Made by a program: the position numbers and the translations under genes. The notes under the pieces were generated by a model that was not told the DNA's origin, did not search any database, and saw only the letters and a list, made by a program, of their open reading frames with translations. A stretch of 19,539 nt of DNA from Promethearchaeota archaeon. GTDB lineage: Archaea > Asgardarchaeota > Lokiarchaeia > Sigyniarchaeales > SOKP01. Positions within the stretch are counted from its first letter, which is position 1; each line of letters opens with the position of its first letter. This document shows, piece after piece, positions 15,821-18,800 of the stretch. The stretch spans positions 1 through 19,539 of the forward strand of contig JAEOSU010000052.1 in assembly GCA_016840165.1 (NCBI GenBank), given 5' to 3'.

Positions 15821-18800
15821 ATGGTAGATTCCCACATTTCCTATTTGAATGGGTCCTATCCTAAATCAAATCCAAAAAAAGAACAAACGACCACTATTAT
15901 GAAATATAAAAACATTTGGAAGGAGGAGTTACCCTATATCAGAGATATCAATGTTTCAATTTTTAAAAGGGTGGTAGTGGTGGTTGTGGGTCTTTTCTAT
16001 TTGATATCGATTGTACTCATTACTTTTAACTTAACTTTTGCTCTCTTTATCATGGCGCTTTACTATATATGCTTCTTTATTATTTTTCATGATAATTTTT
16101 TTCATTTTTCAAATACTATTCATTATGAGTCAGCTAATCCCTTTAAAGACATTCAGTTTTGGCAATTTACTTACGATGATACTATTATCTTGATGACCAA
16201 TTCTCGAACTCAATATACATCGGGTGTTAAAATATTTCAAGTTAAAGTGCTTCCTGAAAATGTAAAGGCTAATATAAGTCGTTACATAAGTGCTTTAGCA
16301 GCAAGTTACGTTCCATTCTCATACCAGATTGTCCAACAACCTCTTCGCTCTTCCCTTAAAACGGGTTCTAAAGACGCTTCCCCACAACGTTTTCAAACCC
16401 TTATTTATTTTTCACTATTCTATGATATTCACAGTAAATTGACTCCTGCTAAGCTAAAAATTATGGTCGAAAAACTAAATAACTATGCAATTTCGTTGAA
16501 AAACACCTTCTTGTCCAATTTTCATCATTATCAGATTTCTCTATTAGCGGGAAAATCCCTACAGTCAGCGTTGCGTACCTTTCTTATTAAAAAACCTTTT
16601 ATCTCTGCCGAAAAAAGTTCAAGTGAAGGTGAACTAAACACTTCAATGGAACCTGAGGATGAGACAGAAGTAGACTCTCTTAAGAATATGAATCTCCTCC
16701 CTCATCTATCATTTTCCATGATTTTGAAAGGAATTTTTATCATCCTTATGCTTTTAAGTATTGATTTCTTTCTTAATTTACTTCAGATAATTCTTCCTTA
16801 TCGAATTCTATTTTCTATTGTGATTGGAGGATTTTTTCTAACGCAGTTTGTCCCGCAAATCTTCCGCTTTTTACCATTTATCAATGAAAATAAGGCGTCT
16901 TTAAAAAATAATCAAGAGATTTTATTTCTCGATTTATTTATTGGAGTAAAATTTTTCACGATCACAGGAATTAAAACCACAATTTTTTATCAAACTGAAG
17001 ATGGATATATAGGAGGAATAAAGCAAATGAATTTGTCCTATGCTACTCCTCCCATTATTGCACTACCCTATAAATTTTATCAGGCTGTGGTTCAACAAGG
17101 AATTGAGTTCGCATATACAGTACAGTTACTTCCTATCAGTTATGATCAATTTACTGATAGGTATTCAAGCTTTTTAAAGCAAAAACTCTGGAATTATATG
17201 CAAAAAGCCCTAAATACCCCAGCAAAACAAAATAATTGGTTAGCAGGACGCAGAGGCTTGTGGCGGACGATACTGACCATATCTTGCTCTCATACGGTAG
17301 TGGCATCTGTCTGTTCCGTGGAAATTCTTGAACATATCGAGAAGAAATTAGAGCATAATATCAATATAATGCGCAATGCTCTTATGGCTAATGTTTCTAA
17401 CTGCCATTTTGTCCCTCTCTCTTCCCACACCTTAGAAATGGGCATTCTATTTGAAATCTTTAAAACTAATCGTATCCGACGCGATGGTACCCATTTACAT
17501 CACATTATATTTCAAGGAACGACTCTACCTGCATTTATTTGGCTCTCAGATATGTTTAAGAAGGGACTTGAAACCAAAATCGCAACTGAATTCAATAGTC
17601 CTTTGCATTTAGAAAATTTTATTATTATAGGTTCTACTATTAACACCGAAACACTTCAACGAGAAATCTTAGCTGGTTTTACCAAAACTCAGCTAGATAC
17701 TTTATTAGTTACCAATGGAAATATGGAACAGCAAAACCTTCTTGTTCAACGAATTGTGGGGGAATTGGTAAAAAAGCAGTATCCCACGATAGTTTTTGAT
17801 TTTGTAGGGAATTACTCTCGTCTTATTCGCCAATTTGAAGGGACCGATCTCAAAGATAGCTTTCTTTATTACAAGCTTGGGAAGACTTTTAACTTAGATT
17901 TAGTGCATTCAGGAATTAAACATGACCCTAATAACATAGATTATTTAGAATTCATGTTTGAGGCTTATGCTAATTGTTTTAAAAAGGATGAACGTACCAT
18001 TGAGATATTTAAGAACAGTTTAATGCGAAATTTAGATAAAGGAACTAATGTGTCTGGTAGTACAATAGCTTTGGGAATTTCTAGTGAACCTGATTGGCTT
18101 CATAATCAAGAACCGGGTGCTCTTTCTGTTATGAATTTCTTCAAAGATTTTTCTCATGAAGGTAATAACTTTTTACATCTCAATACCGGAATTTCCAGTT
18201 CATACTCCCTAATTAAAGAATTTCTAACCAATAAACGCACCATCATTATTGATCTATCTCTACCAAATGGCTTAGAAAAAAAATCATTTTTAATGTTTAT
18301 CATCTTAGCAAAGTGTATTCATTATATTAACAATGGTGAAGCTTTTATACCGAAATCTCTTGTAATACCTCATATTGATCTTGCATTTGATGCCTTTTTT
18401 ATTGAGAAAAATATGCGCTATGGGCGAATTGGTAAATTTTTTGATCCGCTACGAAAGTATGGTTTTGGTTTGATCGCCACTACCTCACAAGTTAGATATC
18501 TTCATTCCAACCTGTTTACGTATTTTGAAAATTTCGTCTCCTTTAAAGCTGTTGATAGCCGGGATATTAAAACCTTGAAAAATATCATGGGTTTAGATAA
18601 TGTTCATGGAACTGGAATTTTTAGTAAAACTCGAAACGAACCTTATCAAGTCCAATATTTAATGAGCATGCGATTTGATGAAGCATTAATAAAACGCGAT
18701 GATCTTTATCAACCTTTTCCCATCGAAACCGATTGGAAAGAGGTGTTAAGTAATTCGCCCCTTACTTGGGATGAAATCGTTAAATATATGAAAAAACAAG

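Follow-up and report, generated by a model that had tools for sequence, protein, structure and literature searches.

The VirB4-like protein encoded at the 3' end of contig JAEOSU010000052.1 of Promethearchaeota archaeon (assembly GCA_016840165.1) contains a tandem duplication. Residues 49-255 and 296-547 are homologous, and each segment consists of a transmembrane (TM) hairpin followed by an α/β domain. The analysed stretch of 19,539 nucleotides, referred to as the window, is the entire contig (C31) and belongs to a genome of 3.6 Mb with 32% GC and 105 contigs. The open reading frame (ORF) encodes 1239 amino acids (aa) and is open at its 3' end, where the contig stops (Table 1). The final ~100 residues were found at the start of another contig (G000:C45:3-308, locus L002), which indicates that C31 and C45 are adjacent in the genome. 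Full-length relatives of the duplicated protein have 1230-1340 aa, and those with a named source originate from Lokiarchaeota or Promethearchaeota metagenome-assembled genomes (MAGs).

The relationship of the two modules was assessed with hhalign, using family profiles built from 20 homologues (alignment A1). The whole modules aligned over 199 columns (Prob 98.5, E 3.9e-15), and the five motif pairs on which the preliminary description had based its claim of a hidden duplication were all aligned in register. To rule out a contribution of the transmembrane helices, the soluble parts were also compared alone (residues 100-260 vs 365-550), which yielded Prob 98.0 and an E value of 2.8e-13 over 154 columns. 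The corresponding controls remained at E 0.049 for the reversed profile and at E 0.19-0.58 for eight column-shuffled profiles. The two hairpins matched each other with an E value of 8.4e-5. The self-similarity is thus significant at the level of profiles, but not in a pairwise BLASTP of residues 49-255 against 296-547 (E 0.34), although the latter recovered the register of the preliminary description. Hidden Markov models (HMMs) gave the same picture. The HMM of either module matched the other module in almost all orthologues (E 1e-4 to 1e-15; 30+ proteins), and an HMM derived from eight stand-alone single-module proteins recognized both modules of the window protein (E 3e-8/5e-6 and 2e-8) and both modules in nearly all 32 order-mates of the window's family (f1). 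As a profile, the stand-alone proteins aligned with copy 1 at E 5.7e-18 and with copy 2 at E 7.9e-19. Both copies are therefore about equally close to the stand-alone form, and each matches it better than the other copy.

Residues 1-560 were modelled with AlphaFold2 (AF2) on the basis of 33 aligned sequences (A2), and the model reached a mean predicted local distance difference test score (pLDDT) of 78 and a predicted template modelling score (pTM) of 0.76. In this model both copies show the same order of elements, namely a TM hairpin and then β-β-β-α-β-(insert)-β-α-β-α, with a long fifth strand and a long helix after it in either copy. Only copy 2 has the additional helical insert between strands four and five. 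In the register of the sequence alignment, the DSSP class was equal at 136/159 aligned positions (86%), compared to 25-54% in slid registers. The acidic segment that had been described as joining the modules is predicted to be a disordered linker. Neither Pfam nor NCBIfam holds a family that matches either module, even at E 10.

Similarity of this kind might arise as an artefact of composition, i.e. from low GC content and hydrophobic segments, or from alignment bias. The GC content of the genome and the non-significant pairwise BLASTP would be in line with such an explanation. However, the signal stayed when the TM segments were removed, was lost on shuffling or reversal, was reproduced by an HMM trained on other proteins and held in more than 30 orthologues, and the predicted secondary structure of the copies agrees. 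These observations effectively refute an artefact and leave it practically no likelihood. Self-similarity, a shared fold, single-copy relatives and the maintenance of both copies thus identify an internal tandem duplication.

The distribution of the protein and of its parts was determined in 400 genomes of the phylum. The full-length duplicated protein was present in 103 of the 134 genomes of family f1. Diverged duplicated proteins of 1230-1270 aa were found in the sister family f3, for instance with 1264 and 1234 aa in the closed genomes G138 and G143; their region 1 matched copy 1 (3.1e-11) and their region 2 matched copy 2 (4.2e-7), which shows that f3 shares the duplication. In other families, matches were obtained only to separate ORFs, those for one module having ~290 aa and those for the ATPase-like part ~520 aa. 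Eight such split loci were fetched, and in each of them the single-module gene (280-357 aa) directly precedes, on the same strand, the gene of the ATPase-like protein (480-535 aa), as for example at L022:8531-9376 and L022:9385-10944. The stand-alone module proteins comprise a hairpin and the domain, including the same helical insert as copy 2. A third architecture is represented by 13 proteins of 749-850 aa (P0237, P0251, P0252, P0258, P0263, P0269, P0270, P0276-P0279, P0281, P0284), in which one hairpin and one module are followed in the same chain by the ATPase-like domain and a winged-helix-like tail; the named ones originate from Helarchaeota and Lokiarchaeota MAGs. The family thus occurs as a split gene pair, as a single-module fusion of ~800 aa and as a duplicated fusion of ~1,270 aa. 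With the exception of one copy discussed below, the duplicated fusion is confined to one Lokiarchaeial order, which includes f1 and f3.

When 1.84 billion cluster representatives were searched with an all-module profile (A5), 176 proteins were obtained at E ≤ 0.001, and all named members of the module family were Asgard archaea. The Atlas cluster of one stand-alone protein was labelled Thorarchaeota. Several genomes of f1 (G241, G233, G249, G183, G179, G228, G240, G162 and G276) carry two full-length paralogues of the duplicated form, which lie on different contigs. Furthermore, a short tryptophan motif before the first TM helix (window ~15910-15960) is conserved in all three architectures; its sequence is 'IWK..NPS' where the module is duplicated and 'FWN/FWR/FWKP' where it is single.

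A maximum-likelihood (ML) tree of 66 module sequences separated three clans. Copy 1 of f1 and f3 formed one clan (SH-aLRT 89; 92 for copy 1 of f1 alone), copy 2 formed another (99), and all single-module forms grouped in a third (98), within which stand-alone and fused proteins were intermixed. The tree is the result of a quick, unrooted run from which short proteins of the representative library were left out, several of them probably being fused proteins truncated at contig ends. Its topology, with f3 sharing both copies, is most likely explained by a single duplication before the split of f1 and f3, on the stem of that order, and the intermixing fits module and ATPase-like genes that were fused or separated repeatedly. 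Since the helical insert is common to copy 2 and the stand-alone forms, its absence from copy 1 suggests a secondary loss. Both copies are kept by purifying selection. The dN/dS ratios of close pairs (Nei-Gojobori) lie well below one for both soluble domains and are higher in the linker (Table 1), and the ATPase-like domain showed values of 0.05-0.17.

The N-terminal region of the protein is predicted to have the fold of the VirB4/TrwK N-terminal domain. A Foldseek search of the PDB with the two-module model returned 13 matches at E ≤ 0.001, the next match following at E 0.037. Among the matches listed, all were TrwK/VirB4 chains of the R388 type IV secretion system (7o42, 7o43, 7o41, 8rtb, 8rtd), with E values of 1.3e-8 to 2.9e-7 and prob 1.00. 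The alignments covered 469-517 columns at a query-normalised TM-score (TMq) of 0.40-0.41, the N-terminal regions of the targets having 400-457 residues; in PMC9259494, the N-terminal domain of TrwK is given as residues 15-400. Among predicted viral structures (BFVD), the best matches were gp155 of Bacillus phage G at E 3.7e-6 and a 437-aa phage 'component of type IV transporter system' at E 2.3e-5. The structural comparison thus bears out the proposed kinship of the modules to VirB4-type N-termini. In the ESM Atlas, bacterial clusters of DUF8128 (PF26449) were among the nearest named look-alikes of the stand-alone module and of the two-module region of P0017, with scores of 0.81-0.85 that lie below the reliable range; the bacteria include Chloroflexota, Verrucomicrobiota and Actinomycetota. 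A literature search found no paper on DUF8128.

At the level of sequence the connection is faint. The Pfam family CagE_TrbE_VirB (PF03135) had no match in the protein, in the isolated modules (E ≤ 10) or anywhere in the genome, while TrwK as positive control scored 4.5e-35. With hhalign, the modules showed no significant similarity to a TrwK-type N-terminal-domain profile made from close homologues, and an hmmsearch of the whole-family and module profiles against the PDB sequences retrieved nothing relevant. Marginal signals appeared with a VirB4 N-terminal-domain profile made from 20 diverse sequences. The combined module profile aligned end to end with TrwK residues 7-180 (score 24.4, E 0.0034), a result reached by 0/30 shuffles, and the stand-alone profile aligned with TrwK residues ~222-376 (E 0.021-0.035), which 1/30 shuffles reached. 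Each N-terminal half of TrwK (L047:2738-5209, R388; sequence record NC_028464) is hence weakly similar to the Asgard module, and the halves themselves (aa 1-180 vs 176-405) display a weak colinear profile similarity at E 0.059. These profile matches hint that an old duplication may also underlie the N-terminal domain of bacterial VirB4.

The hairpins had been compared to VirB3 in the preliminary description, and this comparison was upheld in part. The AF2 model places a two-helix TM hairpin directly before each module, i.e. N-terminal to the domain, as in the VirB3-type topology. In contrast, VirB3 (PF05101) had no Pfam match, and the hhalign comparison of the hairpins with a VirB3 profile ended at E 0.12-0.38. 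The kinship is thus partly supported, namely in topology only.

How the pair of modules relates to VirB4 was considered in two ways. The model suggests that the modules together form one bipartite VirB4 N-terminal domain and not a dimer of such domains, since the Foldseek alignment length and TMq exceed what a single module of 150-185 of the 560 residues could account for; a single N-terminal domain of TrwK would thus accommodate the pair. The preliminary description had spoken of a 'pseudo-dimer' in one chain. Read in this way, the modules would imitate the dimer of N-terminal domains by which two VirB4 protomers are held together in the inner-membrane complex of R388, and one chain would represent two N-terminal domains but a single ATPase domain. 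Such an arrangement would suit the observations that every module has its own TM hairpin and that the N-terminal region of the single-module relatives amounts to one module only. But the structures matched by the pair are single chains, and together with the extent of the alignments this makes the dimer interpretation very unlikely.

As a whole, the data are probably best explained by a lineage-specific tandem duplication of a VirB4 N-terminal-type module, the pair being fixed in cis in a scaffold protein. A lineage-specific origin from a single-module ancestor is the most parsimonious interpretation of the occurrence of the duplicated form in one order, while single forms are present in the same and in other classes. 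Several points weigh against this explanation. The tree is an unrooted arrangement of three clans, so that the order of events would rest on the distribution among species, interpreted by parsimony. A full-length duplicated copy in one genome of another family (G057:C266:1525-5304) could be due to mis-binning or horizontal transfer, and none was detected in the 21 other genomes of that family. Finally, the sequences show only marginal similarity to the VirB4 N-terminal domains of bacteria (E 0.003-0.3), and PF03135 is not matched. An ancient duplication shared with bacterial VirB4, from which the single-module Asgard proteins would descend by secondary loss of one copy, is compatible with the unrooted tree and could account for the alignment of the two-module model over the length of single VirB4 N-terminal domains, for the weak colinear signals of the combined and stand-alone profiles in the two parts of TrwK, and for the resemblance between the TrwK halves. 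Copies 1 and 2, however, resemble each other (E 1e-13) far more than either of them resembles TrwK, where no significance was reached, and they are about equally close to the stand-alone profile. In addition, the duplicated form is found in one order nested among single-module lineages of the same class and phylum, so that an ancient event would require either multiple losses or a conflict between gene tree and species tree. We consider this alternative improbable and retain the lineage-specific duplication as the preferred explanation.

The C-terminal part of the protein belongs to a different fold. The model of residues 548-1239 (pLDDT 79) matched HerA (4d2i, E 1.6e-10) and many HerA defence complexes in Foldseek, and the highest target-normalised TM-score (TMt) was obtained for the VirB4 C-terminal domain 4ag5_B (TMt 0.66, rmsd 5.9). 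A profile that included the split relatives matched PDB sequences of HerA (8j4u_M, E 1.5e-5; 8xau_A, E 2.5e-4). Structure and profile comparisons thus assign the domain to the RecA-like HerA/FtsK superfamily. A HAS barrel together with a DUF87 score above threshold, as expected of HerA, was not found, the weak DUF87 match reaching 18 bits at a cut-off of 23.2, and the N-terminal model matched no HerA chain.

The nucleotide-binding motifs are altered throughout the family. In the window protein, the Walker A position is occupied by 'LLVTNGNMEQQN' and that of Walker B by 'IPHIDLAF'. The Walker A position is 'NGTxxxRE' in duplicated forms and 'GGSxxER' in single and split forms, and none of the 40 aligned members or 13 single-module fusions has the lysine and Ser/Thr of GxxGxGK[ST]. 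At Walker B, the duplicated forms have 'IPHIDxxF', which departs from hhhhDE, the single-module fusions range from 'IDQADE' to 'DDAD', and 'hhhDDxE' is kept in the three split forms shown. With the Walker A lysine absent across the family, the protein is most likely a membrane scaffold for the co-operonic membrane and helix-hairpin-helix (HhH) proteins and not a motor.

These results can be combined into a putative course of events. The duplicated unit would be a two-helix membrane hairpin with a cytoplasmic α/β domain of ~160-190 residues. The ancestor presumably had one module, either as a separate gene upstream of the ATPase-like gene or fused to it (~800 aa), a state that would persist in other Asgard lineages. 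On the stem of the Lokiarchaeial order of f1 and f3, the module may have been duplicated inside the fused gene and the C-terminal extension added. The module would anchor the ring-forming domain of HerA/VirB4 type to the cytoplasmic membrane. Where a lineage has one module only, two copies might pair in trans, and the duplication would fix this pair in one chain, at a ratio of 2:1 to the ATPase-like domain. A pair in cis would allow the copies to specialise, copy 1 without and copy 2 with the insert, and the outcome would resemble the bipartite N-terminal domain of bacterial VirB4. The resulting protein may organise co-operonic membrane and DNA-binding proteins without a motor role.

The signature ATPase of type IV secretion and conjugation is VirB4; how its N-terminal domain originated is, to our knowledge, not understood. 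Asgard archaea are the closest archaeal relatives of eukaryotes. Whereas the fold and superfamily are known, the duplicated and doubly anchored N-terminal region, the single-module relatives and the family-wide loss of the P-loop are new. The literature search found no paper describing VirB4-like proteins of Asgard archaea or a VirB4 N-terminal domain that is duplicated internally. The preliminary description likewise knew of no such architecture among described HerA/VirB4 proteins. Taken alone, the duplication concerns domain architecture; it is of value for what it tells about the VirB4/HerA-like family. Three architectures are now defined for an Asgard-restricted, P-loop-less family, in which the predicted VirB4 N-terminal-domain fold occurs as a free-standing membrane-anchored module. 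The recent duplication, with copies that are still recognisably related, offers a testable model for the assembly of the bipartite domain and of the VirB3/VirB4 platform. It is conceivable, if rather unlikely, that the ancestral block of the VirB4 N-terminal domain, a VirB3-like hairpin with one α/β domain, is still present in the single-module proteins of Asgard archaea and that the bipartite domain arose by duplication at least two independent times, in bacterial VirB4 and in Lokiarchaeia. If so, the Lokiarchaeial protein would be a young, legible replay of the assembly of the VirB3/VirB4 platform and part of an undescribed, Asgard-specific membrane machine without motor activity. The near-universal presence of the gene in its own family and the conserved operon of membrane proteins make it a candidate for a new membrane machine.

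In f1, a conserved gene string precedes the gene. It codes for the HhH membrane protein, a multi-TM protein of ~249 aa and a protein of ~285 aa that has a hairpin at its C-terminus (Table 1). The neighbours in the window and in the split loci are unannotated membrane proteins, the HhH protein and Hel308. By Pfam, no VirB2/3/6/8, VirD4 or relaxase genes were detected in the window or the split loci; a remote-homology search of the neighbours was not part of this comparison. The 285-aa protein and the ~150-aa upstream proteins of the split loci were compared by hhalign (E 0.098), and no link between them is claimed. Hel308-like helicase genes are close to the split-form genes in L022, L023, L024, L027, L029 and L046, and this association holds across the phylum. 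A RadA/Rad51 gene is located ~3 kb upstream of the module gene in two split loci (L022:4223-5287, L023:4254-5318), and in L027 the split pair is followed by NifH-like and nitrogenase-component-1-like genes (L027:6299-8403). Another ORF of the window (9165-12125, +) codes for a protein of 986 aa that is secreted or membrane-anchored and has a prenyltransferase-like α-α toroid domain (Pfam 1.6e-11); homologues of this protein occur in only 3 of the related loci.

Table 1 Features of the VirB4-like protein and of its neighbours, in window coordinates (dN/dS from close pairs)
Feature	Position	Strand	Remarks
VirB4-like protein ORF	15821..19537	+	1239 aa, cut by contig end
TM hairpin 1, two helices (aa 38-88)	15932..16084	+	AF2 helices 38-68, 71-88; hydrophobic windows 51-69, 75-93
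Module 1 soluble α/β domain (aa 101-258), without helical insert	16121..16594	+	hhalign, stand-alone HMM, AF2; dN/dS 0.09-0.48
Acidic disordered linker (aa 259-295), includes EGELNTSMEPEDETEVD	16595..16705	+	pLDDT < 50 at aa 259-292; dN/dS 0.57-1.6
TM hairpin 2 and short amphipathic helix (aa 296-364)	16706..16912	+	AF2 helices 298-320, 325-342, 345-362
Module 2 soluble α/β domain (aa 365-550), with helical insert aa 441-476	16913..17470	+	hhalign, HMM, AF2; dN/dS 0.10-0.31
HerA/VirB4-fold domain without P-loop lysine (aa 560-1010)	17498..18850	+	Foldseek, profile match, weak DUF87 match
C-terminal helical extension (aa 1011-1239), continues on contig C45; duplicated form only	18851..19537	+	
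HhH-domain membrane protein, first in conserved gene string	12206..14131	+	Pfam HHH_5 2.1e-9; full-length matches at same position in L044, L039, L033
Multi-TM protein, 249 aa	14214..14963	+	adjoins homologue in 28 loci
285-aa protein with C-terminal TM hairpin	14960..15817	+	adjoins homologue in 29 loci
Hel308/Ski2-like helicase	1230..3770	-	Pfam; near homologue in 14 loci, including 6/8 split loci

HerA, a DNA translocase of archaea and bacteria that also acts in the Nezha/SIR2-HerA and DUF4297-HerA defence systems, provides the best Foldseek E value for the C-terminal domain (4d2i), the sole sequence-profile matches in the PDB (8j4u_M at the lowest E value) and the weak DUF87 match. It differs by its N-terminal HAS barrel, its intact P-loop and the lack of TM hairpins. 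VirB4/TrwK, together with VirB3/TrwM, from plasmid R388 (PDB 7o42, 7o43, 8rtb, 8rtd) resembles the Lokiarchaeial protein in the fold of the N-terminal domain, in the HerA/FtsK-type C-terminal fold, for which 4ag5 gave the best TMt, and in a two-helix hairpin beside the N-terminal domain as membrane anchor. Unlike VirB4/TrwK, the Lokiarchaeial protein matches neither CagE_TrbE_VirB nor VirB3 in Pfam, has no Walker A lysine and an altered Walker B, and holds two hairpins in one chain, one of which separates the two halves of its N-terminal region, and these halves are detectably homologous to each other. No VirB2/6/8/D4 or relaxase genes were recognisable by Pfam near its gene, which is chromosomal and near-universal in its family and not a gene of a mobile element. 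Natural VirB3-VirB4 fusions of 915-922 aa, encoded on IncX3/IncX4 plasmids and a Campylobacter plasmid (L053, L055, L056), likewise have a hairpin fused N-terminally; however, they contain one hairpin, with none between the halves of the N-terminal domain, and are active P-loop ATPases. The single-module Asgard relatives share the module, the ATPase-like domain, the loss of the P-loop lysine and often the Hel308 neighbour. They differ from the duplicated form in having one module instead of two, a C-terminal winged-helix-like tail in place of the long helical extension and, in the three split forms shown, a retained 'hhhhDDxE'-type Walker B.

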